Origin: Ostreococcus lucimarinus
Lineage: Eukaryota
Strand: one strand, 5' to 3'
DNA: 64,000 bases
NCBI GenBank assembly: GCA_000092065.1
Contig: CP000594.1
Within the stretch, counting starts at the first letter, position 1; each line of letters starts with the position of its first letter. This document shows positions 9,312-39,706 of the stretch, in pieces. The position numbers were made by a program, and so were the translations under genes. A model generated the notes under the pieces. It was not told where the DNA came from and did no database searches. It saw only the letters and a list, made by a program, of their open reading frames with translations.

Positions 9312-10694
9312 ATGTTGACGACGGCGATGGCGTCGTTTTCGAGCGAGGCGCTTCGCGCGTGGCGCGCGGGGGACGAGGAAGACGCGCGCGAACGCGCGGC
9401 GTTGATCGCGGCGAGCTCGGGGGGCGACGGCGGCGCGGATGGGGCGCGGGGGGGGGGCGACGACGGCGGCGCGAGGGCGAGCGCGCGAGGACGACGCGCG
9501 CTCGCGGCGGCGGCGTGCGTCGCGGCGCTGGTGGGCTTGGGGGCGTGCGCGCGCGCGCACGGTGCGGAGATGAGCGGGCGCGAGCGTGGGGTGCGCGCGG
9601 CGGCGCTCGGTGGGGAGGCGCGTTCGGGCGGGACGCGGCGGCGCGGCGCGCCGAGACGCGCCGCGCCGAGACGCGCCGCGGCCGCCGCGGCCGCCGTCGG
9701 GCAGAGCGAAGCCGAGAGCGGTCTAGTGGTGTTTAATGAAGCGCCGGAGTATACGTGCGCGAAACGGAATAAAGCTTTGAGAGAGGCTGCTTACGCCGCG
9801 AGGATGGGGTCGCCGTGGACGCCGGGGTGTCACTCAAAGCTAGGCGAGGAGGGGTGCACGAAGATTTCAGACGCCGGCGCGCGACTGGCGGCGTTGAGCG
9901 ATCACGTGTACGTCATCTGCATGAAGTGCGATAAAATAGTGCTCCCATTGCAGTGGGCGGGGAAGGTGACGACGGTGCACGGCGCCGACATCGATCCGTG
10001 CTACGGGCGCGCGGCCGCGGATCACTGGCACAAGGCGTCGATGTCGCACGTGCACGCGCTCCTCGACGCCGTCAAGTACCAGTACAAGACGGTGACCATC
10101 GTCGAAGAAGATGCGATAACGGTTTCACCCGATCGCGTGGACGCCAACGCGGGGTTCGACATCGACGGCTTAGAGCACGCGATCAAGAATGACTCGAGTT
10201 GGAACACCGTTCGCGTGGGTTACAGACCATTCTTTTTCGAGCAACAGTCTGCAAACGTCCCAGTCGGTTCGACACCGCATTACGCCTGCCCGCTGGCGTG
10301 TAAGTGCCACGAAACGACGGCGAAAAACGCGTGCATCGTGCGCGAGAATGGATGTGACATGCGAAGCAGCGACTTTTACATGATTCGCATGTCGCAGTCG
10401 CGCGCCATCAGAAAAACCGTCGGCGCGGGGAGCACGATCGACATGGAAGCTTTACGCAACGTGCATCATCAAATGTACGTGTTGCCGCAGCTCAGCTACC
10501 AAGCGAACCTCGATCGCACGCGCGAGCAGCAAGTGAATATGGCTCGACGATTCAGAGACTTGTGCTTTGTGCCGAAAACTCCGTCCGACGAAGTCGTGCA
10601 AGACGCGGCGACGGCGGAGCGCGAGTACGAAGAGCGAGTGAGCACCATCGAGTCCGCGGACTCGACGCGATATATCACCAAACCACAACGATAA
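9312..10694 (+). CDS. putative type-II membrane glycosyltransferase, weakly GT25-like (LPS/collagen galactosyltransferase family)
   Basis: ATG at 9312. N-terminus is a Gly/Ala/Arg-rich cytosolic tail followed by a single hydrophobic anchor (LAAAACVAALVGLGA). The lumenal domain has HVYVICMKCD...HKASMSHVHAL...IVEEDAI, loosely matching GT25 (IYVINL...GEIGCxLSH...LEDDAI). Family assignment is tentative. Confidence 0.35.
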   Translation: MLTTAMASFSSEALRAWRAGDEEDARERAALIAASSGGDGGADGARGGGDDGGARASARGRRALAAAACVAALVGLGACARAHGAEMSGRERGVRAAALGGEARSGGTRRRGAPRRAAPRRAAAAAAAVGQSEAESGLVVFNEAPEYTCAKRNKALREAAYAARMGSPWTPGCHSKLGEEGCTKISDAGARLAALSDHVYVICMKCDKIVLPLQWAGKVTTVHGADIDPCYGRAAADHWHKASMSHVHALLDAVKYQYKTVTIVEEDAITVSPDRVDANAGFDIDGLEHAIKNDSSWNTVRVGYRPFFFEQQSANVPVGSTPHYACPLACKCHETTAKNACIVRENGCDMRSSDFYMIRMSQSRAIRKTVGAGSTIDMEALRNVHHQMYVLPQLSYQANLDRTREQQVNMARRFRDLCFVPKTPSDEVVQDAATAEREYEERVSTIESADSTRYITKPQR

Positions 10695-13430: not shown

Positions 13431-16400
13431 ATGGTGTTCGAGCGGTTGTTGGCGGACCAACTGAACGCGAGGCTCGGGCGCGTGCTCGAGGGCGTCGATC
13501 GCGACGACGTGCGCGTGGGCGTGCTGAACGGAGACGTGCGGATACGGCGGGTGCGGGTGCGGGCGTCGGCGCTGACGAAGATATTGGACGAGCCGAGCGC
13601 GCGGGTGCGGTGCGGATTCGTGGACGAGCTGCGCGTGCGCGTGCCGTGGAGGAACTTGGGGAAGGAGGCGGTGCGAGTGACGTTTCACGGGGTGTACGTC
13701 GTGGGGGAGATCGATGTGAACGGAGACGACGAGGCGCGGGAGAGCGAGGAGGAGCGGAGGGAGAGACAGCGGGTGAAGGCGTTGAGGACGGCGCGCAGGG
13801 CGGCGGACGCGGCGGAGCGGGCGTGGTTGAAGTGGAATCCGGCGGTGAACGCGGAGGCTTTGGAGGCGGAGGACGGCAGGGAGAGCGCGCAGGATGGGGT
13901 GAGGAAGAGGAGCGCGATCGCTGGGCTCATCGACGTCGCCCTGGCGAACGTTCTGATTGAAATTTCAAACGTGCACGTCAGAATCGAGGGCGAGTACGGA
14001 GCGGGCGTTCCGTGGGGAATGGGACTCGTGCTCGAACGCGTGTCGCTGACGACCGTTGGAGAAGATTTCGAAAATGACTTCAAAGTCGGCGGTTTCGCCG
14101 ACAGTTTACGAAAGATGATTGCGTTAGAGCGCGTCGGCGTGTACGCCGATTTCAATTCGCCGTCAGTCGCGTCAGAGACGCCGGACGGTTGGCGAGGCAT
14201 CCGCGAAGACCAATTCGTGCGGCAAATGTCCGCGGTCTTCAATACCGAGGTTGGCGAGCGCATGAAAGAAGGCACCAGCGGCGATGTCGTGATACCGCAA
14301 TCGTACGTATTCGGACCGTTACGAGGAACGGCGACGTACGCGAGAAGAGGTCACGCCGAGGACACCAACACGCCGCTGCATCAATTACGGATGGATATAA
14401 ATTCTATTCAAATCAGCATCAAGTCAACGCAGCTTAAGGTGTTTTACAACATGTACTCCAATTTACGCACCAGTCGCGTGCGGTACACGTATGCGCATAT
14501 ACGCCCAAGGGTCGGCGTCAAAGGAAATGCGCGTTTATGGTGGCGTTTCGCGGGCGCCGGCGTTCAGATGCACGTCGACGAAATACGTAAACGGCGTGGA
14601 TTGGACTTTAAATCTAGTGTTAGCGCTATGGTGCGCATAACTGAGGCTCGCCAGCGTTATATTCCTTTATACGTCAAGCATTTGCGCTCTGCACCGCCAC
14701 CTCCAGAGTGTCTAATCGCCGAACGCGCCGAGCGACGCAATAAGCTTTGGCCACCTAAACTGAAGATTGGGATGTCGACAGAAATTGATGAAATCGAAGA
14801 AGGTATTCCCCTGCAGAGTATTATTACTTTCCGAACGCTGGCGCACGTAGAATACCGGGAGTCTGGCGGGGTGAAAGCGGCGGTAGCGAGAGAACGAGCG
14901 GCTCGCTTTGGCAAACGTCGGGTCGTCAGAGCAGTCGTCGGTCTCGCGGGCGGTGGTGCGAAGAACACGGCAAAGGTATTGAAAGGGCTGTCGGCGCCGA
15001 TTCGTGGTCTTGCTCGAGCAGTTAACAAACGCGACTCGACAGCATTATTAGTCGAGAGGCAAAAGCGTTTGCGAAAGTCGCAACCGGAAGAAGATGATGA
15101 TTCAAACTGGCGAGAAAGTCTAGAGAATACGGTGCAATTGAGCCAGCGAATGGTGGCTCTAGAAGAAGAAGCCGTGCACTCTTCGGTTGAGCTATCCGGA
15201 GTGGTGAATGTTGAAAAAGTATTAGTTTGCATGGTTGATGACGAGGTTGACAATCCAATCGGTGAGCAGGAGATTTTTAGAATAGGTGTCCATGAAGTCA
15301 GTTTGGGAACGCTGCGAGGTTCTGGACGACGAGAACAACGCGTTTCTATCCGCCGATTGGCGATCGTAAGCCCGGAAGGGACACTACTCGATTCCAGTAA
15401 GACCACTGATAATGAAGAGAGAGCGACCTCTCTCGATCGTTCACAAGTTGCGTTATGGGACAAGGCGTCCGAGTGTAACGCGGTGCAATTGCAAATAGTC
15501 AAAGGCGATGTCGAGACAGAAGAAGATATCTTCATAAAGTTTCAGATGAGGCAGTCGATCGTGCACTTATTGCGAGAGCCTTTAGATAGAGTGGCGCGAG
15601 TGGCTGTGCGACACAAAGTGACGACGGCATATCTCGAATCTTTCATTTACGACGATGAAGCGAAACAGCGCAATCACACACACTCCATCGAAAAGCAGGC
15701 AGATGAGTTCAAAATCAGACCAAGAGTGCGATTAGACGCGCGAGTTCACGGTCCCGTGATTATTTTGGATGGCGACGGCGTAAACTTACGCATAGACCTT
15801 GGTACAACGGTAATTGAGTCTATGACGCCAGTTTCAGCTGGCATCGAGAGCTCACTAGCAAAAGAACACAATGTTTTCTCATTTCAATGCACAGGATTCC
15901 AAGTCGGATTTATCGACGATGAATGGGATACGAATTCGAACCGACCTGTGGAAGATGAACAGATAATACTTCCGCTGTTGAGTGCACCGTCGTCAAACAC
16001 CGTCGTGATTCAAAATTTGAATGCCGCATCCGATGCGCCGAATCTCAAGGTGCACTCAAAGTTCAGCGCCATTGATATTTCGGTTTCTCCTGTGCGAGTG
16101 TTTAAGATCCGTTCTTTGGTCAAGGCATTGAAGCCAACAACGTCCATAAGTGAGGAACACGTCGCCGCGGTTGTCACCGAAAACGAGGTCCGAGTGCTGC
16201 TGCTGCAATTGGATGAAAGCGGCGAAGTGTGTTGGATACCGGCGACGATATCGTTGCAAAACAATAGTTCTATGGATATTAGAACGATTAATGGGCTCAA
16301 AAGTCGAACAATTCACATCAACCTCATGGAAAGCAACGGGGCGAGCAAATTGCGAAGTGACATTTGCGCGAAACTCTCCTTGCACAAGGACGTACTCACT

Positions 16401-19400
16401 ATCGGTGAAACTGTGCATTCTTTGGACGAGTTAATGATTTCAGCTATGTCGGATGATAGTCTCAGCGTGATGTTTGATATTGACGATGATGATGCGAGAT
16501 CTCGCGACACGGTCCTGTTCGATGCATGGTACGCACGGATTAACGGCGTCGCTCGCGAAAATATCACTAGGCTGACAAATGCTGCAAAGAACGGCAAGCT
16601 GTCGAAGACTCAAGTGATTTTAAGTGTCGGCGCCGAAAAGCTGTCTGTTCATGTTTTTGCACCTCTCAAAGCACATCCATCCGAAGATGATTCCGCTGTG
16701 ATAAATGACGAATCAGATTCTGAACGAGCGCTCGCAAGCCTTTGTTTCGACGAGCTCAACTACGACTCGTCGTTGGCTCGTACCGTGAAAGTCCATCATA
16801 TAAAAGCAAACTCACTCGTTTTGTACGACAGATATGCAAGTGAAGGTCTTGGACGCGAGTGCATCGCCGGAATTGGAGGACAGGGCTCCGGTCAACCCCT
16901 ACTTACAGTCACGGTCGCCGTTCGCCATCAGAGCGATCCCCAATATTGCGGATTGGACAAGCTGATCGAAGTCGACATTCACAAAGAGTTAGTGATGAAT
17001 ATTCGTCGGCCCACGCTCCTTGCATTGATCTCGTTGAGATTCAGACTGCGTCCACCCGGTTTCAAGATTATTAAGATCATGCCTGATGTATCGTCGCGCA
17101 TCATGATTTCTGGCAAGCTCGTAAAACGGATCAAACGCGAGATACGCGTGAACGTTGCGGCAGTGACTGCGAATGGCTTTTATGATCACGACAAAGAGAT
17201 GGATGTTCCTGTGCTAGTGTTGCGTGCCGAAGATTCGTATTGGAGCACCATTATCAGTCCTCCAACACGTGAAACAAGCGTAAGCGTTGGCACCATAAAA
17301 CTTGCGACGGGACAGATGCAAGCTCGGGGCGCTTGGAATCTACAACCTTCACCCGAGTCGAGCTCAAACATCATACTTTTACGTAATGACGTGTACGACA
17401 GAGGAGAAGAATTAGACGGGGCCGATGTGTCGTGGGAGATCGAGCTCGGAAATTTGGACATAGTTATGACTCCTGAGATGAAGGAAATTGGATCGTGGTT
17501 CGCATTCTTTCGTCAAATAAGACCTGATCATATTGAAAAGTACGTCCACCCATGTGCACGACCTCGAGCTGGATTTCAAGTGCTCAAATCCCGTCTCTTG
17601 ATCAAGATGGACGATCAAAGGATCACCTTGCCCGTCGCCCTCAGCGAGGGCGAGTCAAATCACGACGTCGTCATCAACTCAGGATGTGTAGAAATCACCA
17701 GATCATTTTCTTCGAAAGCAATCAATGAAGCGCATTCAATATTTTGGCAAACAACGGCATTGAGCGTGTCAGAGTTTGAAGTAAGTGTCATCTCATTTGC
17801 GGAGAAGCGGAGAGAAAGCGTTTCTAAAATTACGCAGAAGCCGTTTGGTGTGAAATTGTCTTTGCGGAAGAGAATTGACAGTGGCCCCGCAATCGTGAAT
17901 GAACTCGATGATAAGAACAAAATCAGAGTGCAGCCTATTTTCCTCGACTTATCCGGTAGCGAATTTCGATGTGATCCACGATTCCATCAAGAACATTCAG
18001 TTGAGTAAAGTTCGGCCGAACGTCAAAGTGGAAAATCCTATCAGATGGGGTAGCGTCGGACCGCTCCCTGTTTCAGACGTGCTCGCGCCGGCATCGTTGA
18101 AGTCGATGGAATTGAGCGTTATTCTGAGCAGCGCAAAACTCCGCGTCTTCCGGCTACCGATGCAAAGTCGTCCCCTCTCAACGATAAAGGTAGTTGGCGT
18201 CGACGTGTTTGTCGTAAAAAACTTGAATCGCAAGTCTGGAATCAATCTCGACGCTACCGTGGATATGATTGGCGTCGACGATAATTCTCGACAATCCCAG
18301 AACCTTAAAGTCAAGCACGTTCTCTATGCGGGTTCTCCGAAATTACCATTGCTTCATTTGACGCTCGGTGTGAATGATGACAGCACGCGCCTGCGAATTT
18401 CGCTACAGCATGTAGAAGTATTGCTGCGTGTGGGAATCATTTTGGATACCATACGGACTTTCGCACCTCGAAAATTTGGAGGGGTCTTTTTAGCCAGTAC
18501 GATTCTTCCTCAAGACATTAAGTGCGTGCACGGCAGTGACTTCCATCTCGATAAGGATGTCACTCTGACGAAAAGTACGAGACTGCTGGCCGACGATCCC
18601 AAAATTGTTGCTGGCAAATATGTGCTGCGCGGAGGTGGACATACCATAAAATTCGCCGATGGCAAAGGAGCGATCATTCGTCATTATTCCCATGGCTCTC
18701 GACGCAAGACGATGCCACGCATTATTATCGGTCATGGCGCAACGCTGAAGATTGAAAACGTCACCTTCAATTGTACACGCTCAACATTGTCAAGGTTTAT
18801 CAAAATGATGCCCGGCGGTAGTTACTCCCTCGGTAAGAGTGTTTCCTTTGACGAGACCGAAGAAGAGTTGATACCGGTTCACGATGGTCTTGTTGAAAGC
18901 ACACCAGTTATTGATGCCGCAACAAAGCGTGCAGAAGAAGGACCAGGGCGAAGAATGAAGGAAATTAAAAAGAAACCGCTGTTGGTCGAGGTGGATGTGT
19001 CATGCGTACATATAGTCATCGGTGAAGAATTGAGAGCTGATCAGATCAACTTGATGTTTGGAGTCGATGTGGCAATAATTCGGGACGAAGAATTGAACAC
19101 GACGGGAACTTATCAGCTACTTCGTCTTCGTACGAAGGACACTATGAAACCACCGCTTCTGGAACCAGCAAGCGTGACAATGCACGTTGTATCGCGTGAT
19201 GGCGGCACCACAACTTGCACGGGGTGTGTGACACCTATCAAGATGCAGTTGAGTCCCAACAGGATTTGTATCTTGAAGAATTTCACGGAACGTATTGAGC
19301 GATCATTTGCAATTGCGCCCATCTTGCAAACCGGCGTGTATTCGTGTGTCTGGGCAGGACATGCAACCACTTTAACAAAAAAAGTAACTGAGGCGGGTGT

Positions 19401-22400
19401 GCTCCGACAAAATCAAGCCGGTAGCAATACTTCCTACTCTATCTGGAGACCCGTTGCTCCACCTGGTTACGCCATACTATCTGATGTCGTGAAGTCTGAA
19501 GGAGGAGCTCCTGAAACGCAAGTTTTGATCGTTCGGGATGCGCCCGCTCTGTGCACGTTGCCAGAGAGATTTGAGAAAGTCAAAGGCACCGCAAATCCTT
19601 GCCTGTGGCGCCCGATCGCACCGACGGGTTTCGTGAGCTTAGGCGATATTGCGTCAGTATCGGATGCGGATGAACCGTCGCTGGACGTCGTCCGGTGTAT
19701 TCGAGAAGAGCTCGTGACGAACATCGGTCAAGCGTCTACACTCGCAAACTTTCGCTTGTACGGAGATTTCAGTCAATCGAATACAACGTTGTGGCAAATG
19801 AATAACAGAGTCCGCGGATTCGTGGTGGTCTCGAAGTCGAATATTCGGCCTTACGCGTACGACATTCGCTCCCCTCCTGGATTTCAACGCAAAGTTTCGA
19901 CGGGAACCAAGGAGAAGATAAAGCTGCAGGAAAAGGAGTGCGAGTGTGCCACCGCGGTGAATTTCAAAAAGATTGGCATGGCACAAAACGCGAAGTCAAC
20001 TGTTGGGTTTTGGGAAGTCATTCCGCCTACGGGTTATGTATCCACCGGACACTGCATGAGTGTGGGCAAACTTCCGCCTTTAAGCAGTAGAGTGTTCGCG
20101 GACGATAAACGTACTTTTCGACAACCAGAGTCATATGAAAAAGTTGCTTCAGCGCGTACGTACGGCACCACACAGCGTTTGACAATTTGGAAACCAGTGC
20201 CATGCGCCGGGTTTGTGAGCGTCGGGTTTGTTGTCACCACTGAAGATAACGAGCCTTCTGTGAATGACTCGATCGTCTGCGTCCGAGCAGAATTGGTATC
20301 TTACATGCATCAAAGGAACTGGACTACAGACAACTCTGTTTGGACAGTTGACGAAAATGCTACAGACACCACGCACTTCTGGATCCACAAATGATCACAC
20401 GAAAAATTTCGTTATGAGTGTTTTGACGACTGGCATGACGCCCGATTTCGGCTTTGATATCGGCTTCCTAGAAAGCTCTTCGTTAAGGGGGCAAGTACAA
20501 ATGCCAAATTTCATTATGAAATTCGACGTGCCTCTTGTGAGCGTCGGACTCTCATTTGAAAGATTGTTTCGCAACCAGATGCTCTTCTTGCTTCGATTGG
20601 AAAAAACGAAGTTGAGTTGTACGAAAACGTCGAAATTGAATCTGTCGTTAGATTCTTCGCTGTCTCTCCTGCATAGAAATACGCGACTGGGATACAGTCT
20701 AGAACCCATTGTGGCGCCGTGGAAGTTTTCGGTTCTGTTGGATGACTCAAAAAATGATGTTTCGGGCGTGAATCCCGCGGGGTTGGACATGTTCATTGAA
20801 AGTAAAAAGAAGATTGAGATAATCGTCAATCAAGCCTCCATAGTTGACGCAGTGGATGCCGTGATGCAGTTTAAGAAACCACGCGACAAAAACTCAAAAA
20901 TTGCACATTTGTTGGCTTACGAAGCCGTGCAAAACAACGTCATTGTGAATTCCACGGGACGCGACTTATGGGTTCGCGAACTGAATGGCAATATACAAGA
21001 AGTACCGCCTGGAAATAGCATTTCGCATTTGGTACATGCCGCTGAAACCGAAGCAAATTCTGGATTCGAGAGTGCATCAAATGAGCAGACGATGCGCGGT
21101 ATGACTGACGTCGTTGATGACATGAATCATCACGGTGACGAACAGCTCATTATCGCATACCTGATGATGGATATCGTGGCAATTGACTCGTTGGATGACT
21201 GGCTTTACCCCCGCATAACTTTCAAGATTTGGGATGAGGCTTTGCAGGGTCATCGTACCGATCCATTACCCATCGGCGTTACGCGCGGCTCAGCAAAGTT
21301 ACCGATCCCTCATCCTTTTTTCCATCGCGATAGTGATAGCGAGTTCATCAACAATGACGATATCACCATTATCGTCGAAATTTCTCATATTGGGCCAAAT
21401 GGCGAAACATTGAGCTTCAGTGGTGACTTTGAAGCTCCAATCGAACAACAACGCGGTGGATGGATTGGCGGTAAAACTGGAAGCTGGATAGACTGTGCTG
21501 CAGGCAATGGTGACTCCGTGAGAATTAAGCTGCGCGCTCGAGTGGTGGAAGGTTTGAATGGCGACGCCAGTCACAGAAACGGTAGAGTTGTATCAACTCT
21601 TAAAGAGTCCGCAGAAAACGATTATCAAGAGTAAATTACAAGTTGAATCACCACCTCTCATCGTGTGTCGTACGAATGACATGGTGAAGCAATGGTGGAC
21701 AAGAGATCATCAGCAAAGTAAAAGTGCCCTAAGTGCTTGGAAGCCGCACGTCCCATCGACGTATGAACTCGAGACGAGATATAAGTTTTGTTCGAGTAGA
21801 GCTGAAAACGAGTATAAACTCGTACCTTTTGGGACCATCCTCTTGCCCGGCCTCATCGCGCCTCGCAGTGCGCTCATGGCAGTTGTCTTAGAACATAATT
21901 CAGATCAGCGGGCACCGACTGCTTTTCCCTCGGGGTTCGAAAATATTTGGACGAGCGATAAAAATGATGTCTCATTTTGGAAGCCCATTGCACCAGACGG
22001 TTACGTTGCAGTTGGTAACGTGGTTGCGGCGAGCGCCGAAATGCCTTCCACCGATTGCGTCGTTTGTGTTCGCGAGGATTTGACAAAACTTGCAGAAGTG
22101 CCTCCGGATGTTGCATGGAAATCGAACAGACGATTTCGCAATAATGATGAAAGAGAATTGGCGCTTATTCAAAACGGCCAACTGAGTACTGGTGGATGGT
22201 CGTTCTTGAAGGAGAAAATCAAGCGCACGAGTCCAGGCGTGATTTCGAACGTCATTCCATCTATGCATAGACTTAATGACAGGATGTGCATTCATTCTTT
22301 GGATGACGAAGGTATTCGCGAGTTTTGGATCGATAACCGCACTCATATAGATCATATAAAGCAAGAATTACAAGCTGGAGAGTCAATTCTCGCCATTTCG

Positions 22401-25400
22401 TTTTCTCCTTCCGGGCCGTTTGAGCAAGTGCGTCTTAATCTAGGCGCTTCACACGTTGTTCGTCACAAGACTCACGATTTAGTCTTTGACAGTCAAAAGG
22501 GGCATCTTTTGAGCTATGTTTCGTGCGAAAACGAAACAGATTCTGATATATTCGTTGATGTTCATCCAGCTATGAAGAGAGAACTCACGACTTCTAATTT
22601 GGACATATCTCTGAGTGAGAAGTATGAGTCGCCGAGCGATGTCGCGGATATAGAAGTATTTGAATCGGAACGATATTACCCGTTGAGAGGATGGCGTGCT
22701 CCAAAAGACGCTATCGTAAAAGCTCGTTATAGCAGGCATAAAAGTGGACGAGGTTCGCAAAAACGGTTTCCAGACGTCAAAGCTCCAAAAGGTTTCAGAT
22801 TTGAAGGACCGTGGGAGCTCGACAAACCACCAAATCTGGTGAATGACGACGGTTGGGCGTACGGTGCTATTTGGCTAAGGAAGTGGCCACCGCCTCGTGG
22901 ATCAGACAAAAGTAAAGGTCGTGCAACCCGTCGCCGACGATGGTTTCGTCGTGTCGTTCGATTGAAATCAGCTGAAGAAATTGAATCGCGCGTTTCCCTT
23001 CATAACATGAAGCGAGATTTCATCGAAGATTGGCACGGCACGTTGGCGGTACACGGACGTCTTACGCTACCTTCTTGTTCACGAACCGAGTCCTACATGT
23101 TGGCGTTACGCACGGGGGCTGACGTCGCATCAATTACCGCTCCGTCGTTTACCGAGAGAGATGACGCGCTGGATATTCGTGACGTGTTATCAGAGCAAGG
23201 CAACTGTGCGCTTGCTTACAACAACCTGCACGATCACTTTCTTTTGGTCAAAGAAGAATTGTCGAATGATGTGCAAAGTAGCGCGATAGGTGCTATTCCA
23301 GGCGTCAAGATTCGTGTCGTTGCCCCTGTTCACGTTGTCTCATTGATGGATTGTCCGTCGCAAGTTGTTTTGTACGCCAATGGCGAAGAAAGAATTGCCA
23401 TGCATCTTGCCGCGAACGAAACGAAACGTATCACGGCGATCGATGCAAACTGTGATACAATAGAGGTGCTCGTGTCTTTGTTCGAAGATTATCTCAGCCT
23501 TAGTAACGACAGGCCGCTGCGTCTAGATGTCACCCCGGCTGGAAGTCCACCGGCGCCACAGGTAAACTGGTTGAACATCAAAGGCTATCCGTATGTGGTT
23601 TCTATGCTGTTGATGGAGACGTGTAGAACTAGAATGGCGGGTGATAAATTCAACGATGATCCTTCGCAGCATCTCTTGAGTCTGACGTATCGCAATGTGC
23701 TGATGGTTACAAATGCATCACCGATCGACATTAAGTGTTTGGCGTGGGTCGCTGGCACAAGTACGACAAACGCGCACATAGATGCATACGTTGGGGTACC
23801 CAAAGGCGAGTCGCAACCTGCCATGTTTCTGAAATCGAGTGCGAAAACCCTCGCCAAAGTTTCGAGCAAAGAATTTGTGCTCGGTTTTTGTATCGATTCG
23901 TCTCCAGTACTAGTGAAAATTTCACCAAGTTCTGAGCCCGTGATGTTTACGCTTATGACAGCAAGTGGGGACGAACTTGCCTTTCAATGTTCCGTAGTAT
24001 TATGGGAGGGTCAAAACACCAACGCCGCGACATGGCCAACGCTTGAAGTTGTTTTACAACCCGTGCTCGTGGCGATCAACTTGACTCGAATTCCTCTCGC
24101 GATTCGCTCAAACACTATGGAACACAAGATACTCGAGCCAGGTTCATATCCCACGCCGTTTTCTTTGGATATTAAGTCTTCGAAAAGCGTAGACGAAGTT
24201 GAAGCCGTGCTTAATCAAGCCGCGATTCAAATAGCGGATATGTCGTGTCATTCGGAAGGAAAAGATATACTTTGGAGTTCGCCGCTGCAGAATTTGGTGC
24301 GCTATTCTGGAGCGATGTGGAGCATCCCACAAGGTGCCTCCCCCTTGGCGGATGAAATTAATGCATTTAGAAGACTTGGAGGTATCGACGAGTCTGGCGA
24401 AAACGTAAATTTCAAGGCACCTATCATCGTTCAGTTTCTTGTCGAGCGCGGTGAGCACGGTTGCTTCAGGGTCTTTTTTAGGGGGGGCGACGGAGCATCT
24501 CTGCAGAAGGCGCCAATCATGATCAAAAACCATTTGCACGAACCTTTACTCATTCGACAAGTGAAAGCGAACGACTTTGAGGACGTAGAAAAGAAGTCGG
24601 TGCAAAAGTCCACCGTGCGACTACTGCAAGGTATTAAGAAAGCCTCACACGGCGTAGGACAGTCTTTTGCAATTCGCCCGTTCTCAGCGATATCTTGGGC
24701 GTGGAGCGTCCCAGGTATTCCTATGAGATTGGACAACTTGAAAAAACAGGAGCTCGAGGCAAACGCCGCGGAGCTCGCATTTCGAAAGCGGAAATTTTTG
24801 GAGATATCGAACAATACAGGGGATCACGTCATCATAGAGATAAACGCGTTCAGCTCGCGATTCAAGGGTTTCATGCACCTCGGCGACATGCAATTTGGAG
24901 AACTAGGCAAGCGCACGTTACACGCAACGATTATTGGTGAATGGCGTGACGCATCGTTCGTGATCTTCGTGGTTGATAAAACGATAACGTTTGACAACTT
25001 TTCTTTCACGACTGAAATGACGAATCAAGCGAAAGCATTGACGTTGTACGCGCGGCAGCAAGAAACGCACATCTCTGTCAATTTGGCTGGCTTCTCCGTA
25101 ACAATCATCGATCGCCTCCGCGACTCATTCGTCGAGTTATTCCATCTCACGATCGACGACGTGATGATCAGGCACGGAATCAACTTGAATCAACAGCAGT
25201 TCTGTCTATAGTTATCTCAGAATTGGTGCACTGCAGATAGATTTTAGCACGCATGACGCAAGCTATCCAGTCTTCGTTTGGCACGACCCGGCGGACGGGC
25301 ACTTGCTTGAAGCGTACGCTACTTTGAGTATGAATTCTCATATCGGTGGTGACTCGATCGATGTTTATCACGTCCAACTAACGACAACGAAGAAAGGCCT

Positions 25401-26739
25401 CGTGATTCGCGCCGGTGAAGATCTCGTCTGGACAATCTTGAACTTTTGCAGACTCCTCCAAACGCAACTTCCACAACGCAACGCTTCAGCAGGTTCCGCC
25501 ATCGCGCCACGCGAAACGTTTGTTGGAAAGCAAACCTCACAAGATAGTTTGCTGAATATCGCCACTTTATACGTGGAACCGACATCTTTTGTTGTCACGT
25601 TTGCTCCAAATTCCGATATCCGACCTGCAGACGCCGACGCTCGGATGATCGCCGCGTTGACGTTTGCAAGTTTACAGCGCCTGCATTTGGTGCTCAACAA
25701 ATTTGATAAATTCGATGAGAGCATACTTCGTTCGAATTTGATTCGCGAATTCCGAAACTATTTCAAGTCACAAATGATAGCGCAAACGCTCAGTGTCATG
25801 ACATCGATGCACACGCTGACAAACGTTTCCACGGGTCTAGATGCAGTGAGCAAGGCGGTCGAAACCGGCTTCGGCGTACTCGCGCCTTCTCGTACGGCGC
25901 CTTTGGCTCGTTTGCCATCTTCTGTCGTCGGCCGAGGAAGCAGAAGCGACGGTCAGGGCAACTTTGCGAAAAGTGTATTCGTTGGTCTGAAACGACTGGG
26001 GGGTGGTATTTCTAAGGGAATTATCGGCCTTTTCGTCAGCCCTGTAAAAGGTTGCATGGAAGGCGGCGTCGTGGGCGGGTGTAAAGGATGCGCTCGAGGC
26101 GTCGCCGACTTGGTAGCTAAACCGACCGCTGGCGCGTTAGCTCTCGCCTCAAAGACGGTCGAAGGCGTAGCCAATGCCGCTAAAGGCGTACAGACTGCCG
26201 CGTGGGACATCATCACCACGAATAATGTCTCAAAAGCGTGCATTAAACGCCTCCCCATCGCCGTGCGATCGGATGGCATCATTCGAAGATGGGATGCGCA
26301 CGACGCGTTGGGTGTTTATTGCATGCGCACATGCGTCGTGTCCAGTCGAACACTGGGCATTTCTTACTGTCCGGGCGTGAAAGACTCATTCTCCTCGATG
26401 CATGACATTTTCGGTGAATATTTGTTGCTTGTCACCGACAAGCGCGCGTTGTGCGTTCGGACGCCGGAGATGGACGGGGCCATGCCGGCGCGCGCGCCGA
26501 CTTGCGCGTGGTACATCTCTTGGAGTGATGTGAGCTCGATATGGATCGAAAACTCTGTGATCATAAAGTTGCAGATGAACGTCACGAGTGAGGGCGACAC
26601 TTCCAACCTGGGTGCGCAGAAGCGTGAAACCGAATCTTGTTTTTCGATTCGCGCTAGAGCCCAAGACGAGGCGGCGAACATCGAAGCCGCGATGCGTCAA
26701 AGCTGGAACGCCTACCTGGATACAACAGAAGAAGAATAG
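13431..26739 (+). CDS. VPS13: VPS13-like bulk lipid-transfer protein gene (~4,400 codons), split across five ORF segments in alternating frames: 13431..18008, 17899..20394, 20264..21634, 21558..25211 and 25303..26739
   Basis: N-terminal chorein motif (MVFERLLADQLNARLGRVLEGVDRDDVRVGVLNGDVRIRRVRV) follows a verified ATG at 13431. C-terminal ATG2_C-like motif GVVGGCKGCARGVADLVAKPTAGALALASKTVEGVANAAKGV is in the last segment. Middle segments carry repeated W/F-x-P-x-x-P-x-G-[YF]...G motifs (SYSIWRPVAPPGYAILSDV, LWRPIAPTGFVSLGDIA, FWEVIPPTGYVSTGH, TIWKPVPCAGFVSVGF, SFWKPIAPDGYVAVGNV), as in the DUF946/Vps62-like inserts of plant VPS13s. Segment junctions overlap by 77-131 nt or are separated by ~90 nt, which implies short introns or frameshifts. 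Confidence 0.8.
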
Positions 26740-31800: not shown

Positions 31801-33280
31801 GCGCAGATGCAATAGCCTTGATCCCTTCTTGCACCATACCGGAATCGATGCATGAGCGCACGAGCGAAATCAACGCTTCGGCGACCTCGGTCGCAACGCC
31901 CTCATGAGGCGACGCGAAGAGCTTCACGAGGGAATGAAACGTCGTCGGCAACGCTTTTGCAGAGGCTTGCGCGTCGATGGCGTGGAGCTTACACTGCGCG
32001 CGAGAGAGCAAGCGCGCCAAAGAAATCACCATCGTCGGCGCCGTGTTCAAGTTCGCATTCGCCACGGCGGCGATGGGCGCCATCAGCCCTACGATCGTGT
32101 CCGCGCTCACGCCTTCGCTGCCGTCATCGGCATCCATCGTGGGCGAATTTGCGAGCGCCAGAAGCGCTTCCGTGGCGTGTTGCGTGAGCAAAGGCTCATC
32201 CAAATCCAATAATCCCGCGCACGCATCCGCGCACGCCCCGCACGCGGGTTCGGCGAGTTCGGGCAACAAAACCTTCATCGCGCCGAGCATGTACAGCGCC
32301 TCCGTCGCCGCCGCCGTCGCGCGCGCGCGAGCATCTTTCGCACCCGCCGCACCTCGCGCCTTTTGCATCTCCGCCGCCGCGCGTTCGGGCGCCTCGCCAA
32401 TCTTTCTCGCGAACGCCGCCGTCATCTCCCCGTACGCCGCCGCGCGCGCCGCGTCCCCACGCACCCTTCGCACGACGTCTCCCAGCGCGTGCACCGCCGC
32501 CTTCCGCACCTTTGGCCTTCCATCGATCGACAGATTCAACGTCGCCTGAAACGCGCGCTTCCCGTGTTTCTCGCTCGTCTCTCCTCCCGACTCGCCCTTC
32601 GTCGTCGCCGCCGCCGCCGCGCACGACGCCAACAATCTCGCCACGTGTCGCATGCTCTTCGGCGACCTCTCGCTCACCACTCGTCCGCATCCCATCACCA
32701 CCTCGATCGTCCGCTCCATCTTCGCCCGTATCACGCGTCCATCGACGTCCGCCGCCGCCTCGGCCGCGCACGCGCACACCGCCTCGAGCGCCTCCAGCGC
32801 GTCCTCGCTCCCGTCCGTCCCCGCCCGCGCGCTCGCCCGCTCCAGCGCCCCGAACGCCGCCGCGAACACCGACGTCGCGTTCACTCGCATGTCTCCCTCC
32901 GCGATCGCGCGCTCGACCGCGTCGCACGCGCGCACGACGCGCGCCGAGCTCGCGCTCGCGCTTCGTCCGTGCGCGCGCCGCAACCGCTCGAGCGCGCCCT
33001 CGGGCGTCGCGCGCGCGTCGCGCGCGTCCGCGGTCGGGCGCGCGTCGTCGTCATCGCTCGACGCCATCGCGTCGAGCGCGTCGAGCGCGTCGAGCGTCGG
33101 CGCGCGCGCGAATGGCGTCGCGCGCGCGTGGCGGCGGATGGCGGCGATCGACGTCGCGCGCTCGATCCGACGCCGTTCGCGCGGCGCGCGCGGAGGGGCG
33201 CGCGCGAGCGTTTTTATCGGCGAGTCCGTCCGCGCGACGACGCGCGATGACTCGCGTCGCGTCCACGCGCGACGATTCAT
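28842..33280 (-). CDS. RRP12: RRP12-like pre-ribosome nuclear export / HEAT-repeat protein, in three ORF segments: 30521..33280, 29206..30621 and 28842..29267
   Basis: VSKYARNFLPILFNLF, SKNRFKLKVRVVLERMCKRCGYEVV (cf. human RRP12 SKNHFKLKVRHLLDRFVRKFGFELV) and GADGKLMIVEESE (cf. DGRLIIREEAD). The C-terminal segment has GKTTGDVYSKQTKLEPYAYWPLDPKLLNRRNSKKVAARAQLGGVVKSAKAAG (cf. [41 protein letters not shown]). Segment overlaps at 29206-29267 and 30521-30621 imply two short introns or frameshifts. N-terminal ATG candidates are at 33280 and 33067. Confidence 0.7.
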
Positions 33281-33646
33281 TCATTCGTGCATTCATTCAC
33301 GGTTCGCTGGCTACCGCTAACGCGCGCGCCGGCGCTGGCTATCGCCGATGCGCGCGACGACGCGCGCGCGATCACGCGCCCTCGAGCGTCGCCGCGCGCG
33401 CCTCGCGCACGGCGCCCGCGAAGGCGTAGAACTGCGCGACGCTCATCTCCATCTGCTCGAACCAACGCCCGTCTCGCGCGTCGTCGTCGCTTCGCGCGTC
33501 GTCGTCCTCGAGCGTCAGCCTGACGACGACGCGCGAGACGCCGCTGGCGTTCGTCTCGCTCGTGCTCGCGGTCACGGCGAGGCGCCAGGCGAGATCGACG
33601 CACCGCGGCGGCATGGAGTGCGGCGCGCGCGGGACACCGCGACGCG

Positions 33647-34657
33647 ATGGCGAACCCGTTCGCGACGCTCGACGGCGACGCGCGCGGCGACGACGGGCGA
33701 GACGACGGCGAGAGTGGCGACGCGGCGCGCGGCGCGCGCGCGGCGACGGCGGCGACGCGCGCGAGACGGACGACGACGACGACGACGAGGGCGGCGAAGA
33801 AGCGCGAGACGGCGGCGCGGCGAGCCGAGGCGGAGGCGATGCGCGCGCGCGCGCACGCGGCGATGGCGATGGAAAAACGAGAGGACGATCGTTGGGGGAA
33901 GGTGGCGAAGGGATCGGGAATCGCGAGGAAGGCGGCGAAGGAGATGGCGAAGACGATGACGACGACGGCGGCGAGGGACGACGACGACGCGACTGGAGAG
34001 ACGACGACGGAGACGACGGAGACGACGGAGACGACGACGACGACGAGTGATGCGATGGCGAAGGTGAGTGAGGTGTTCTGGCACACGTTCGAGGACACGG
34101 GGGCGTCGTGTTGGTGCGTGCGAGTGGAGGACGAGGACGGCGAGTCGACGACGATGTCGATTACGAAATCCGTGCCTCGCGCGAGAAAAATTCCGAGCGA
34201 TGGGGGCGAACGACCGGTGTTGGTGAGCGGCGAGATTCGACTATTACTCGCTGAGTGGGACGATCGCACGCGCATCGATCGAGCGAGGCGCGCGAAGGCG
34301 AAATTGAAGGCGGCCAAGGCGGCGGCCAAGGCGGCCGCGGAGGCGGCCGAGGCGCCGGCCGAGGCGCCGGCCGAGGCGCCGGCGGTCGAGACATCGCCCG
34401 CGCCGGTGGCGGAGACGCTGTCCGCGGCACCGCCTGATTTCGGCGCGACGCGTAGAGCGCCGCCGCCCGGGTTCGAAAAACCTGCGTTTCGAGTCGTGCA
34501 CGTGCCGGTTGTCGATCCTGCTGTCGAGGCGAGGCAACGCGAGCTCGAGGCGCAAGTCGCGGCGTTGCAAGCGCAACTCGCCGCACAGCAGATGATGCAA
34601 CAGACGACGTACGCGCCACCGCCGCCAAGCTTTTCGGGAGGATCATCGATCTGGTAA
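33647..34657 (+). CDS. Stm1 / HABP4-SERBP1 (PAI-RBP1)-like RGG-rich ribosome- and mRNA-associated protein
   Basis: Verified ATG. N-terminus MANPFATLDGDARGDD matches the family signature M..NPF.LLDDD. Followed by RG-rich low complexity, a poly-Thr/Glu-Thr tract and (AEAP)n. Family assignment rests mainly on the N-terminal motif. Confidence 0.45.
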   Translation: MANPFATLDGDARGDDGRDDGESGDAARGARAATAATRARRTTTTTTRAAKKRETAARRAEAEAMRARAHAAMAMEKREDDRWGKVAKGSGIARKAAKEMAKTMTTTAARDDDDATGETTTETTETTETTTTTSDAMAKVSEVFWHTFEDTGASCWCVRVEDEDGESTTMSITKSVPRARKIPSDGGERPVLVSGEIRLLLAEWDDRTRIDRARRAKAKLKAAKAAAKAAAEAAEAPAEAPAEAPAVETSPAPVAETLSAAPPDFGATRRAPPPGFEKPAFRVVHVPVVDPAVEARQRELEAQVAALQAQLAAQQMMQQTTYAPPPPSFSGGSSIW

Positions 34658-35185: not shown

Positions 35186-36387
35186 CTGCGTTCGAAAATA
35201 AGAAGCGAAAAAGTGAAAATGTCAGTCTTCGTCCGCTCGCTCGTTCATCGTCTCAGAGAGTATGGTCACAAAATATCCACATTGGGTATTCGGTAAAGTT
35301 TTTGGGTTAAAGGTTTTCATCTTCCTTGACGACGGCGCGATGAAGTCGAAGAAAAACGAACGTCGAGAACGACGACGACGACGACGGATGTAGCAGGGGT
35401 TCTAGAGGCCGTTAGTCATGGACAGACACGAAGCCCGCTTTACCCAAGCGTCACTCTACGGGCGTCTTCTGACGCGTCCGCGAATCTTTGAATCGCGGCG
35501 CGCACGTTCGAGATAAATCTCGCACCCAACATCGATCGAAAAGTAAAATGAATCCATTCAGCGGCGTGTCAGTGTTTCGTGAATCTTTTCACCGCGCCGA
35601 AACGCTCTAAAGGTGTCCTAAGATATATTGACGAAGTCATCACCCACACCGCCGAAACGGCGAGAAAAACCAAACAAACAAACCAACGATCGCGTCAGGA
35701 ATCAAAAATGATTTCGTTTCAAAGGAAGCCACTGAACACGGAGTCCTCAATTGAACTATGCCTTGATTCGAGCATCACCCGCGTCGTCGTCCGTCGTCTT
35801 CGTCGTCTTCGTCGTCGCTCGACGAGAGAAAAATCCACCCGCCGCTCGCGCGCGTTTCCAAGCCTCAGCTTAACGAGATTCACAAGTTTGATCGTCACCG
35901 AAATCAGATGGTACGGACAAGTGTGTCTCATCATCGGCTTCGCGCGCGCGACGGGCGGTCGCGCGTTTTCGTTTATCCGGCTAGCGTTCCGGCGTCGCGG
36001 GACCGGCCCGCGCGCCTCGCTCACGGTTCGCCGCGTCTCGCGCGTCGGCTCGCGCTCTCGCGCCCGTCCCGAGAGACGCGCGCTCGATCGCGTGCGTCAT
36101 CGCTCGACGGTGGTTTATCTCGGCGCGACCGAGCGCTGCGCGCGTCATGAGCGGGACGCGGCAGTGACTCTAGAGTGGATCGGCCTCTCGCGTTCTCGCG
36201 CGTCGCGTCGTCGTCGTCGTCGTCGTCGTCCTCGTCGCGTCGCGTCGCGTCGTCGCGCACCTCGTCGCGCGTCTCTCGCGCGCGCGTCTCGCGTTCGCGC
36301 GCGCTCGCGTCGCGCGGTGCGGTCGGGTCCGATTCGCCGCCGCCGCCGCACACCGCGACGCCGCGTCGACGCGCCGCGACGACGCGC

Positions 36388-37422
36388 ATGGAGACGGACG
36401 CCGACACCGGACGGGTGCGCGTGAAACCTGCGCTCGAGGCCGTGCGCGCGCACGACGGCCCGCTCGAGATCGATCTCGGGACGCTGCGCGTCGTCGACGC
36501 CGCGCCGCTCGATGTCACCGCCGCCGACTCGGGCGAGGCGGAGGCGCACGCGCGCGAGCGCGCGCGAGACGTCCTCCAGCGCCTGGTCGCGGAGTTGTTC
36601 GCGCTGCCGAGCGAAACGGACGCGCACGGACGGTTCGCGCAGTTGCCCGAACCGACGACGACGTTCCCGAGGCTGCGCGCGTTGCCCCCGAGCGAGGCGC
36701 CGCTGACGAAGTGGGAAAAGTTCGCGAAGGAGAAGGGGATCAAGAAACGGAAGCGAAGCAAGGAGGTGTTCGATGAGAAGACGGATGAATGGAAACGGCG
36801 GTATGGGTATCAACGCGCGAGGGACGGGAACGATGTCATCATCGCGCCGGGGAAGATGACGGACGTGCCGGGGAAGACGGAGGACCCGTTTACGCGCGAG
36901 GAGCGAGAGAAACGGGAACGGACGTTGAAGAATCGAGAGAAACAAGATAAGAATTTGATGAACGCGGTGGCGGAGAAGGGTGCGAAGGCGTTACCGCCGA
37001 CGCTGCGATTGGCGGTGACTGGTAAGAAGGACTCCGTGGGGAGCGGGAAGCTAGGGAAACGGGAGATGAAGGACGTGGCGGCGCGCGTCTCGCACTCCAC
37101 GGCGTCGGTCGGCAAATTCAACGCCCCAGTGCCGGGAGACGATAAGGTCAAGGTTCGCGGCAAGCGACGTCAGTTTGCGAGCGTGACGGATATGGATTCT
37201 GAGCGTAAGAAGAGCTCGGAAATCATCGATAAGTTGCTCGCGAAGGAGAAGCGCGGCGGCGTCGTCGACGTCAACGCGGCGGCGCGGAAGATTCAGCAAG
37301 AGAAGGAAAAGGCGAACCGCGTGAGCAAGCGCAAGAAGGCTGACGGCGAGAGTAAGGAGCGGGCGTCCGGTAAGCGAGGGAAACCATCCGCAGCCGGAGG
37401 CGCTCGCGCGAAGAAGAAGTGA
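36388..37422 (+). CDS. RRS1: RRS1 (ribosome biogenesis regulatory protein) homologue
   Basis: PLTKWEKFAKEKGIKKRKRSKEVFDEKTDEWKRRYGYQRARDGNDVIIAPG (cf. RRS1 PLTRWQQFARLKGIRPKKKTNLVWDEVSGQWRRRWGYQRARDDTKEWLIEVPG) and VSHSTASVGKFN (cf. VAKVSTASVGRFQ). Lys-rich C-terminus. In-frame ATG at 36388. Upstream track extension from 36175 starts at GTG in Ser/Arg low complexity. Confidence 0.7.
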   Translation: METDADTGRVRVKPALEAVRAHDGPLEIDLGTLRVVDAAPLDVTAADSGEAEAHARERARDVLQRLVAELFALPSETDAHGRFAQLPEPTTTFPRLRALPPSEAPLTKWEKFAKEKGIKKRKRSKEVFDEKTDEWKRRYGYQRARDGNDVIIAPGKMTDVPGKTEDPFTREEREKRERTLKNREKQDKNLMNAVAEKGAKALPPTLRLAVTGKKDSVGSGKLGKREMKDVAARVSHSTASVGKFNAPVPGDDKVKVRGKRRQFASVTDMDSERKKSSEIIDKLLAKEKRGGVVDVNAAARKIQQEKEKANRVSKRKKADGESKERASGKRGKPSAAGGARAKKK

Positions 37423-37581
37423 TTAGATTGTGATATAACCAAACGACGACACGACGTTAAAGAACCGTAACAAACATCGCGAGTACATGTCGCGACCCGG
37501 GGCGACCACGACTTATGTTCCCTCGTATAGTTGCGTCTTCTCATAGTGATTTGAAGTCGTAAAGTATGAAAAAAGTTGGTG

Positions 37582-37679
37582 ATCAACAGGTCCGGAGTTC
37601 GATTCTCCGAGGCCCCTACGACAGACCCATACCTAGGGCACTCGGGGTCTTAGCTCAGTGGTAGAGCGGTTGACTGCAG
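37582..37679 (+). tRNA. circularly permuted tRNA-Cys(GCA) gene. The 3' half (positions 38-73) is at 37582..37617 and the 5' half (positions 1-37) is at 37644..37679, separated by a 26-nt linker
   Basis: 5' half GGGGTCTTAGCTCAGTGGTAGAGCGGTTGACTGCAG matches eukaryotic tRNA-Cys-GCA (GGGGGTATAGCTCAGTGGTAGAGCATTTGACTGCAG...) through anticodon-loop position 37, then diverges. The missing 3' half, A-TCAAC-AGGTC-CGGAG-TTCGATT-CTCCG-AGGCCCC-T, lies 27 nt upstream. It closes the anticodon stem (GTTGA/TCAAC), makes a T-arm (CGGAG/CTCCG, loop TTCGATT) and pairs 7/7 with the acceptor 5' strand (GGGGTCT/AGGCCCC, one G-U). A/B-box order is therefore reversed, as in permuted tRNA genes of red algae and prasinophytes. 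Confidence 0.7.
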
Positions 37680-37812
37680 TTAAAAACCATTTCTTTTTTG
37701 GACGTTTCTCGTCTCGACGCGTTTAGGGCACTCGGGGTCTTAGCTCAGTGGTAGAGCGGTTGACTGCAGTTAAAAACCATTTCTTTTTTGGACGTTTCTC
37801 GTCTCGACGCGT
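37634..37812 (+). repeat. 2 x 90-bp perfect tandem duplication containing the tRNA-Cys 5' half plus its T-tract. The second 5' half (37734..37769) has no adjacent 3' half
   Basis: tagggcactcggggtcttagctcagtggtagagcggttgactgcagttaaaaaccatttcttttttggacgtttctcgtctcgacgcgt occurs twice, head to tail. Confidence 0.85.
37694..37699 (+). terminator. RNA polymerase III terminator-like T6 tract 15 nt after the tRNA 5' half
   Basis: ttcttttttgg read directly. An oligo-T run is the Pol III termination signal. A second copy is at 37784..37789. Confidence 0.5.
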
Positions 37813-37909: not shown

Positions 37910-39706
37910 CTATTTCTTCGCGACGACTTGCGCGAAGCTCACTTTGACCTTCTTCGCCGCCGCGGTCTCCGTCCCCGCGTGTAAATCATCGTTGAGCGAG
38001 TCCAATTGCGTGATTGAATCGTCTTCTTGCATTTCTTTGCGTTTGCGAGCCGCCTTCGTATCGTCTCCCAGGGGCAAAGGTTTCTCTTCGGAGATTTTCT
38101 TTTCCTCGTCCTCCGCGCTCGCCGCTTTCTTCTCCTTCTCCGGCGCGTAGATGTCCTTGACGTAGCCGTCGATTTCTTCTTTCACGAAGCTCGGTAAATC
38201 CTTGCGCTTCAAATATTTGACGTTCGCCTGCATCCCGGGTACCCAGTTCGATTCCCCAGTCGCGCGATCCATCCACGACGTCACAGTCATTTGGAACTGC
38301 TCCACCGCGGGATTCAAGTTGAGCGAAACCTTCTCCTCCTTCTTCTTCAGGCTCGAAGGAAATAACCCCAAGAACAGCGTGACGTGCGAGTTTTCGTCCT
38401 TCTCCGGATCTTTGTACCTCGACGTGCCGGGATGCGCAAGCATTTGCCCTCCCGTGGCGTTTTCGATGCCTTGGATTAAAAGCTTGATTCGCGAGCCGAC
38501 CCAACCTTCCCACTTCTTAAAGTCATCTTCGTTCTTGGCCGAGATGGTAACCATCAAATAATGCTTGTATTTTTCTAAAAAGTTCAACGAACACCACAGC
38601 TGCTCCCACTTCGCGGTGTTTAAAAGAATCATCTTGGTCACTTCCTTGCCGCGCTTGAACTCGGCTTTGAGCACCTCGAGCGTGCTGACGCTCACGTTGA
38701 ACGTAGAGTTTTGCGCCGGATACGCCGGAGTTAAGATTTTCATCAACTGATATCGCTCTGCCTTGTTCACACGCTCGTCCCACACTCGCATCCCGGGTAA
38801 GCCTTCGTCGACGATGGGTACGAGCATCACCGGCGTCGTCCATTGCCACGCCGACCATAGTTGGAAAAAGCTGTACACGAGCATGGAAGGTGCGGCGTTG
38901 GGGTACAACTGACACACGCGCGCTACTAAAATCGCCAGGTTTACGCCACCGAAAAACCCGACGACGTTGCTATACACCCCGCGCCGCTGCGCCCACAGAC
39001 GCAACGTGCGAAGCGCCACTCGAAACGCGTCGTGGTTTGGCACGACGCGCAACAACTGATCCGCCACGCGACAACCATTCAGGGATTTCACCCCTGGGTC
39101 GTCCAAATTCATCATCACCGACGTCTGACACACGTCTAAGTCCTCTGGCACGTGCGTGTACGACGGTAAGCTCGTGTACGCCATATCTATTTCAAAACCT
39201 CTAAACACGAGTTTGATTTCTGGCACGATGGCGTCGCGCACGGGCACGATGCTCTCCGTTCCAGGGTGTTTCCGCATCACGTCATAAAACGACCCTTCGT
39301 AATCATTCTCATCCCATCCAAAGAAATCCTCCTCTCGGCTCAGATGTCTCGGCCCGAGGCACAGCGTATCGATATCCGCAGCCGGTCCGTGCACGCCCAA
39401 TCTATAGCTCCCAAACGTGTACAAGTTACACGACGGCCGCATATCCTCTGTGATCCCCTTTCGCTCGCTCGCCGCCAGCACCCAGTCTTGCAACAACGCG
39501 TTTATCTCCCCCAGCACCTCCTCGCGTCGCACGCACTCGTCCGCGTCTTCGTACACGTCCTCTTCCCGCAGTTTGTCATCGAGCGCCTTGCTCAACTTTT
39601 CGTCGAACGCCGTCGGCATCTCGTTCGACATCACGCGATTCAGCGCCTCCGCGGACGCCGACTGGGTCATGACCGACGGTGCGGAGGGCGTCTGCGCGCC
39701 GATCAT
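37910..39706 (-). CDS. canonical nuclear poly(A) polymerase (PAP, Pol-beta nucleotidyltransferase superfamily)
   Basis: Verified ATG at 39706. N-terminal region KLSKALDDKLREEDVYEDADECVRREEVLGEINALLQDWV. Catalytic segment FGSYRLGVHGPAADIDTLCLGPRH carries the metal-binding aspartates. Central and RNA-binding domains follow, then a Lys/Glu-rich C-terminus. Confidence 0.85.
   Translation of the reverse strand: MIGAQTPSAPSVMTQSASAEALNRVMSNEMPTAFDEKLSKALDDKLREEDVYEDADECVRREEVLGEINALLQDWVLAASERKGITEDMRPSCNLYTFGSYRLGVHGPAADIDTLCLGPRHLSREEDFFGWDENDYEGSFYDVMRKHPGTESIVPVRDAIVPEIKLVFRGFEIDMAYTSLPSYTHVPEDLDVCQTSVMMNLDDPGVKSLNGCRVADQLLRVVPNHDAFRVALRTLRLWAQRRGVYSNVVGFFGGVNLAILVARVCQLYPNAAPSMLVYSFFQLWSAWQWTTPVMLVPIVDEGLPGMRVWDERVNKAERYQLMKILTPAYPAQNSTFNVSVSTLEVLKAEFKRGKEVTKMILLNTAKWEQLWCSLNFLEKYKHYLMVTISAKNEDDFKKWEGWVGSRIKLLIQGIENATGGQMLAHPGTSRYKDPEKDENSHVTLFLGLFPSSLKKKEEKVSLNLNPAVEQFQMTVTSWMDRATGESNWVPGMQANVKYLKRKDLPSFVKEEIDGYVKDIYAPEKEKKAASAEDEEKKISEEKPLPLGDDTKAARKRKEMQEDDSITQLDSLNDDLHAGTETAAAKKVKVSFAQVVAKK

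Follow-up and report, generated by a model that had tools for sequence, protein, structure and literature searches.

[quoted passage not shown] 2007, Science 318:450) carry the 3' half, a linker and the 5' half in this order on one strand, with a TATA-like element upstream and a T-stretch downstream. Their tRNAs mature via a circular intermediate with the help of the tRNA splicing machinery, RNase P and tRNase Z, and their junctions lie at 20/21, 37/38, 50/51 or 59/60 with various forms of the bulge-helix-bulge (BHB) motif. An upstream promoter has been proposed in the literature for such genes, in which the A and B boxes stand in reversed order. The split tRNAs of Nanoarchaeum equitans are likewise encoded in halves, with the break near the anticodon loop, and rely on the splicing machinery for joining.

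Permuted Cys(GCA) genes with the same junction type have been described in Ostreococcus tauri (38-nt linker) and Micromonas pusilla (12-nt linker), for neither of which an extra 5' half is reported in the review that lists them (PMC3978253). Table 1 of the same review (Soma 2014) places Cys(GCA) of Ostreococcus lucimarinus in type II (37/38) and gives 26 nt for its intervening sequence; the gene is described there as having no extra intron and an additional 5' half downstream (PMC3978253). As cited there, the entry goes back to Maruyama et al. 2010 (Mol Biol Evol 27:1070) (PMC3978253). It has been suggested before that the extra 5' half may mark an intermediate stage in how permuted genes originated (PMC3978253). 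Green-algal junctions are termed hBH, the name of a relaxed motif; circular intermediates, as well as expression by northern blot or RT-PCR, have been documented for some of the permuted tRNAs of green algae (PMC3978253). Michely et al. found the annotated conventional tRNAs of both Ostreococcus genomes insufficient to decode all codons and joined permuted genes to the tRNA predictions. The Ostreococcus genes are still cited in later papers, the latest being a 2026 review. Further, the range of permuted genes extends beyond Cyanidioschyzon, a few prasinophytes and nucleomorphs, to which the original prediction had restricted them, as they are also known from Bathycoccus, the prasinovirus BpV1 and the archaeon Thermofilum pendens.

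The locus reported here lies in a 64-kb stretch of O. lucimarinus DNA, all of which was analysed and which we refer to as the window. Species, anticodon, junction, linker length and extra half all agree with the published description, and therefore the gene in the window is the already published permuted tRNA-Cys(GCA) gene of O. lucimarinus, including its additional 5' half, and its recovery is a rediscovery. No difference from the published gene was found in the window; what we add is population and outgroup context. Taken as one whole, the observations are very probably best explained by a nuclear, circularly permuted tRNA-Cys(GCA) gene of type II (37/38) in O. lucimarinus CCE9901, matured by the mechanism proposed below and altered by a recent 90-bp duplication. 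The gene resembles those of C. merolae in its order of halves on one strand and in both flanking elements, and its junction lies at 37/38, with what may be a relaxed hBH-type motif. It differs from the N. equitans genes, whose halves are separate, distant transcription units with long complementary flanks, whereas the window holds one unit in permuted order. Isoacceptor and junction type are the same as in O. tauri and M. pusilla, and its linker measures 26 nt.

Anatomy of the gene and its relatives

The gene occupies the spacer between two convergent protein-coding genes, and the elements of the locus are arranged as follows:

36388..37422, + strand: gene for an RRS1-domain ribosome biogenesis protein (PF04939), ending 159 nt before the 3' half
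37560..37567, + strand: TATA-like AT-rich element TAAAGTAT, lying 22 nt ahead of the 3' half; candidate Pol III promoter
37568..37581, + strand: 5' leader, ending in GTTGGTG with G at -3; predicted to be removed at the 37/38 junction
37582..37617, + strand: 3' half, positions 38-73 (A38 to T73), ATCAACAGGTCCGGAGTTCGATTCTCCGAGGCCCCT; assigned by sequence, cloverleaf and covariation
37618..37643, + strand: linker, the 26-nt intervening sequence, equal in length to the published one; in the precursor it would connect the tRNA 3' end with the 5' end
37644..37679, + strand: 5' half, positions 1-37 (G1 to G37), GGGGTCTTAGCTCAGTGGTAGAGCGGTTGACTGCAG; assigned by sequence and cloverleaf
37680..37699, + strand: trailer TTAAAAACCA followed by the Pol III terminator-like tract TTTCTTTTTT (tract at 37690-37699); assigned by sequence
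37910..39706, - strand: poly(A) polymerase (PAP) gene, convergent with the RRS1 gene; protein identical to O. lucimarinus CCE9901 ABO99724.1 and ABO99758.1
Joined sequence at G37-A38, + strand: GACTGCAG followed directly by ATCAACAGG, the expected ligation junction

The 3' half thus stands upstream of the 5' half on one strand, with 26 nt between them. It comprises the 3' strands of the anticodon and acceptor stems, the variable loop, the T arm and the discriminator U73; the 5' half comprises the 5' strands of the acceptor and anticodon stems, the D arm, the anticodon GCA and G37. The original prediction of a 3'-half/linker/5'-half tRNA-Cys(GCA) gene with its junction at 37/38 agrees with the sequence, the cloverleaf and the published description, and all the elements it named, a 5' half (1-37) partnered by an upstream 3' half (38-73) on the same strand, are present in the sequence. 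Two of its details need adjustment. The short linker it described is there and measures 26 nt when T73 is counted with the 3' half; the predicted 27 nt had left T73 out of that half. The predicted T6 run also exists (37694-37699), starting 15 nt after the 5' half and not directly behind it.

Relatives of the locus were retrieved from environmental contigs by way of the flanking genes, using the identical PAP protein and the RRS1 protein, and by a DNA pattern scan. All 11 distinct O. lucimarinus-clade contigs found via PAP or the pattern scan show the order 3' half, 26 nt, 5' half, and the 5' half is identical in every contig of the clade that was read. The metagenome scan for the permuted Cys architecture yielded just two extra contigs, both of a haplotype seen before, and the same pattern had no match in viral contigs. 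Additionally, three more divergent Ostreococcus-like lineages, whose PAP proteins are 71-80% identical to that of the window, likewise have a permuted Cys gene between PAP and RRS1:

L017/L018: permuted Cys gene with a 57-nt linker
L019: permuted Cys gene with a 42-nt linker, in opposite orientation
L020: permuted Cys gene with a 45-nt linker

Leaders, linkers and trailers of the four lineages show no recognisable sequence kinship, while the tRNA halves are kept. Because the three outgroups carry the permuted gene at the same locus, the permuted arrangement would be older than the split of these lineages. Two further PAP-like loci (L021 and L022) were rejected as relatives, having no Cys halves and a different neighbourhood.

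Several further features of the window and its relatives were observed. The permuted tRNA-Cys gene of L019 (6185-6298) is reversed relative to both neighbours and still sits in the PAP-RRS1 spacer. The two CCE9901 accessions of the PAP protein suggest a second identical copy of the gene elsewhere in the genome; within the window, neither a second PAP nor a second tRNA copy was found, nor any repeat of at least 150 bp. The G+C content along the window is about 47-51% at 14001-26000 and peaks at 72-73% at 8001-10000 and 32001-34000.

Cloverleaf, transcription unit and proposed processing

When the two halves were joined in the order 5' half, 3' half, the resulting 72 nt were identified by ARAGORN as tRNA-Cys(gca) with a complete cloverleaf (acceptor stem 7 bp, D stem 4 bp, anticodon stem 5 bp, T stem 5 bp), the anticodon GCA and the discriminator U73. 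The unconstrained minimum-energy fold of the joined halves is the same cloverleaf (-26.9 kcal/mol). Run on the native 64-kb window, ARAGORN found no tRNA at all, conventional ones included, and the sole Rfam match reaching the gathering threshold was a C/D-box snoRNA, snoR117 (35860-35939, - strand, 43.4 bits against a gathering threshold of 42), located upstream of the RRS1 gene and marking the window as eukaryotic. The silence of both programs on the tRNA is expected because the gene is permuted.

Covariation was assessed over 21 cloverleaf pairs in five distinct joined tRNA sequences from the clade of the window and the three further lineages. Every pair is standard in every sequence (21/21 pairs in 5/5 sequences, 105/105 cells paired). 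Five stem pairs are altered on both sides, and all stem substitutions among the five sequences are compensated. Two of the doubly changed pairs, 3:70 (G-C to A-U) and 4:69 (G-C to U-G), bridge the halves within the acceptor stem. The observed pairing values were reached by none of 500 shuffled controls, and pairing fell to 36-53% when the partner columns were slid by 1-3 positions. This covariation excludes chance pairing. As the compensated pairs 3:70 and 4:69 span the acceptor stem formed between the two halves, we regard them as direct evolutionary evidence at the sequence level that the separated halves work as one RNA.

The surroundings of the halves are equally regular. No run of four or more T occurs within the 3' half, linker and 5' half of any of the four lineages, and the first such run follows 7-31 nt past the 5' half in 4/4 lineages. 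An AT-rich, TATA-like element precedes the 3' half by 22-37 nt in all four: it lies at -22 in the window and at -35, -33 and -30 in the other three. The window therefore has the arrangement of a single transcription unit, with a linker free of terminators, a T-stretch behind the 5' half and, ahead of the 3' half, an AT-rich element with a putative promoter role. This layout fits one Pol III transcript driven from upstream. By analogy with C. merolae and the green-algal literature, we regard TAAAGTAT as a candidate promoter.

We next consider the junction, for which the original prediction had suggested folding the leader against the trailer in search of a BHB motif. In folds constrained to the tRNA body, leader nucleotides -1 to -3 of the window pair with nucleotides 33-35; the leaders of the other lineages form 2-3 bp with nucleotides 32-35 in varying register, and A36, G37 and the start of the trailer remain single-stranded. 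Neither the canonical hBHBh' form nor any full BHB could be drawn at 37/38 in any of the four lineages under these constraints. What the folding yielded is a pairing of 2-3 bp, which may represent a relaxed, hBH-type motif. Position -3 of the leader is G in 4/4 lineages (leader ends GTG, GCT, GAC and GCC, each followed by A38), in leaders that are otherwise unrelated. This conserved G(-3) is able to pair with C32, which we take to be the anticodon-intron pair needed by the eukaryotic tRNA splicing endonuclease. A 7-bp pairing between AAAAAAG of the leader and CUUUUUU of the trailer was rejected as functional, being disrupted in other haplotypes (GAACCAAG, GAAATACG).

Following the literature on permuted genes, we propose this course of events. 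Pol III would probably start at the upstream AT-rich element and produce one RNA consisting of leader, 3' half, 26-nt linker, 5' half and trailer, ending in the TTTCTTTTTT tract. The halves would fold into a normal cloverleaf in which the linker closes the acceptor stem. The tRNA splicing endonuclease, guided by the mature domain and the relaxed hBH-type junction with its possible C32:G(-3) pair, would remove leader and trailer at 37/38, and a ligase would form a circular intermediate by linking G37 to A38. The linker would then be excised by RNase P and tRNase Z, and CCA would be added. The circle, the enzymes and the individual steps of cleavage, ligation and CCA addition are all modelled on published systems.

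The second 5' half and alternative explanations

Downstream of the gene the window contains a perfect tandem duplication, which adds the following features:

37634..37812, + strand: tandem duplication of 2 x 90 bp (Tandem Repeats Finder: period 90, 2.0 copies, 100% matches)
37734..37769, + strand: second 5' half, an orphan, followed by a duplicate T-tract at 37780-37789
Repeat junction, + strand: CGACGCGTTTAGGGCACTC

Tandem Repeats Finder thereby bears out the predicted 90-bp repeat copying the 5' half and its terminator. The 90-bp unit takes in 10 nt from the linker's end, the whole 5' half, the trailer together with its T-tract and 24 more nt. At the junction (GACGCGT-T-TAGGG) there is one extra T, untemplated by the single-copy haplotype, which makes it look like a repair junction. 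The orphan 5' half was accepted as a tRNA by ARAGORN when joined to the 3' half. Downstream of it neither a B-box-like sequence nor a 3' half was found, and as it stands behind the T6 terminator and has no 3' partner, it is most likely functionless.

A single 5' half is present in 14/14 distinct environmental O. lucimarinus-clade contigs read at the locus, a count that leaves out eight further similar places from the RRS1 look-up and that is made up mostly of other haplotypes. Two of the contigs, L023 and L024, found via the RRS1 protein, share the haplotype of the window: they differ from it by 0 and 1 mismatch, respectively, in 4.1 kb, and leader, T-stem and linker agree, down to the C at 37633. 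Their sole departure at the tRNA locus is that one 90-bp unit is missing. Each of the three outgroup lineages has one 5' half as well. Several contigs, L023 among them, bear assembly labels of k = 119-141. By our own reasoning, collapse of the repeat by the assembler is unlikely in these contigs because the 179-nt region, with its 90-nt period, contains no repeated word of at least 90 nt. Since the outgroups are permuted with one 5' half and the duplication occurs in the reference alone, the duplication appears to be newer than the permutation. Judged from these comparisons, it would be very recent and confined to the reference-strain sequence, being either private to CCE9901 or an assembly error. 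The original prediction had left open whether the duplication is recent or evidence of how such genes arise; the comparisons support the first option and not the second, as the duplication is absent from the same-haplotype contigs, the rest of the clade and the three outgroups.

These data bear directly on the proposal that the extra 5' half is a relic or intermediate of the event that created the permuted gene, which we now consider highly improbable. The suggestion exists in the literature, and a tandem duplication does exist at the locus. A relic should be as old as the permutation and common to related lineages, but the extra half is neither: its two units are 100% identical, it is missing from L023, L024 and 12 other contigs of the clade, and the outgroups show an old permutation and a new duplication. 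Moreover, the relic model would leave behind either a 5' half before the 3' half or a 3' half after the 5' half, and does not predict a second 5' half with a terminator downstream. A better, if still rather doubtful, candidate is that the duplication is an artefact of the reference assembly and that the true genome has one 5' half. Perfect identity of the copies would fit this explanation, as would the single unit in both same-haplotype contigs examined (with the eight similar places outside the count) and the derivation of all published mentions from one assembly. Against it, the extra T resembles real repair more than a collapsed or stuttered read, and Sanger sequencing brought the O. lucimarinus genome to a high-quality finished state. 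Contigs from the metagenomes, too, represent wild populations and not CCE9901, so that a duplication private to the strain would give the same picture.

Two other explanations concern the gene as a whole, and both appear exceedingly remote. According to one, the halves are non-functional debris and tRNA-Cys is supplied by a conventional gene elsewhere. The tRNA search covered 64 kb of the genome and the gene is known here from its DNA, which leaves some room for such a gene; debris, however, would hardly show compensation of every stem substitution, including in the pairs that bridge the halves, or conserved synteny in four lineages despite diverged leader, linker and trailer, or a terminator and an AT-rich element that hold their positions in all of them. 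The shortfall of conventional tRNAs noted by Michely et al. in either Ostreococcus genome also speaks against it. According to the other, the tRNA is split, with halves transcribed separately and joined in trans, and the second 5' half forms an independent unit. The second 5' half does have its own T-tract, and it follows the AT-rich trailer of the first copy at a distance of 35-54 nt. However, just 26 nt, free of any terminator, separate the 3' half from the first 5' half on the same strand; long complementary leaders of the split-half kind are absent, and no extended leader/trailer complementarity is conserved. The second copy, for its part, has no B-box or 3' half nearby and is missing from all wild contigs read.

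Wild variation and meaning of the locus

Wild haplotypes of the O. lucimarinus clade vary at the locus in several ways. In five distinct contigs (L008, L009, L012, L013 and L025) the variable loop of the 3' half is interrupted by a 53-nt insertion, at the equivalent of 37591/37592 in the window. The insertion occurs in two slightly diverged versions and on two T-arm backgrounds. It has duplicated AGGT flanks and contains (AAACCCT)3, a plant-type telomere repeat on the opposite strand; two of its blocks are reverse-complementary to the leader, with which it forms a strong hairpin. An identification as a BHB intron was rejected, as no bulge-helix-bulge was found at five equivalent placements in both versions of the allele.

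The window at 37571-37633 was also compared with L014, L005 and L025, haplotypes that are otherwise nearly identical. Between the window and L014, 8 of the 11 substitutions in 3.2 kb fall within these 63 nt, in the leader, T-stem and linker. Among the clade haplotypes, three versions of the T arm occur, all of them fully paired (CGGAG/CTCCG, CCGCG/CGCGG and CCGAG/CTCGG). The clustered substitutions and T-arm variants could stem from gene conversion or from the raised rate at which strongly transcribed tRNA genes mutate. Further, five contigs (L005, L006, L010, L015 and L016) have an insertion 23 nt past the repeat (at about 37835), a dispersed element of some 420 bp bounded on both sides by CGACGTG. 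In L007 the same element links the PAP gene to another neighbourhood (Zip transporter and others), which could be a real rearrangement or a chimeric assembly.

It is conceivable, if quite unlikely, that the tRNA-Cys locus is a hotspot of structural change in the wild O. lucimarinus clade and that the widespread insertion allele is functional at the sole tRNA-Cys gene. If this were true, the cells would do something new: they would either excise from a Pol III transcript an insert that is bounded by GU...AG and has no BHB, or use a tRNA with a variable arm of about 58 nt. The reading applies to the related loci and not to the window.

The gene itself, including its extra 5' half, has been known since 2010 and is nothing new. 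Our modest new point is a correction: the extra 5' half would be a recent duplication within a gene that was already permuted. Its recency, the covariation across the two halves and the insertion allele in wild populations are small additions to the published description. For genome annotation, the locus is an example of how standard finders overlook permuted tRNA genes, as with ARAGORN, which made no tRNA call here. To encode an essential RNA by a permuted gene is rare, and such genes bear on how tRNA genes get rearranged.
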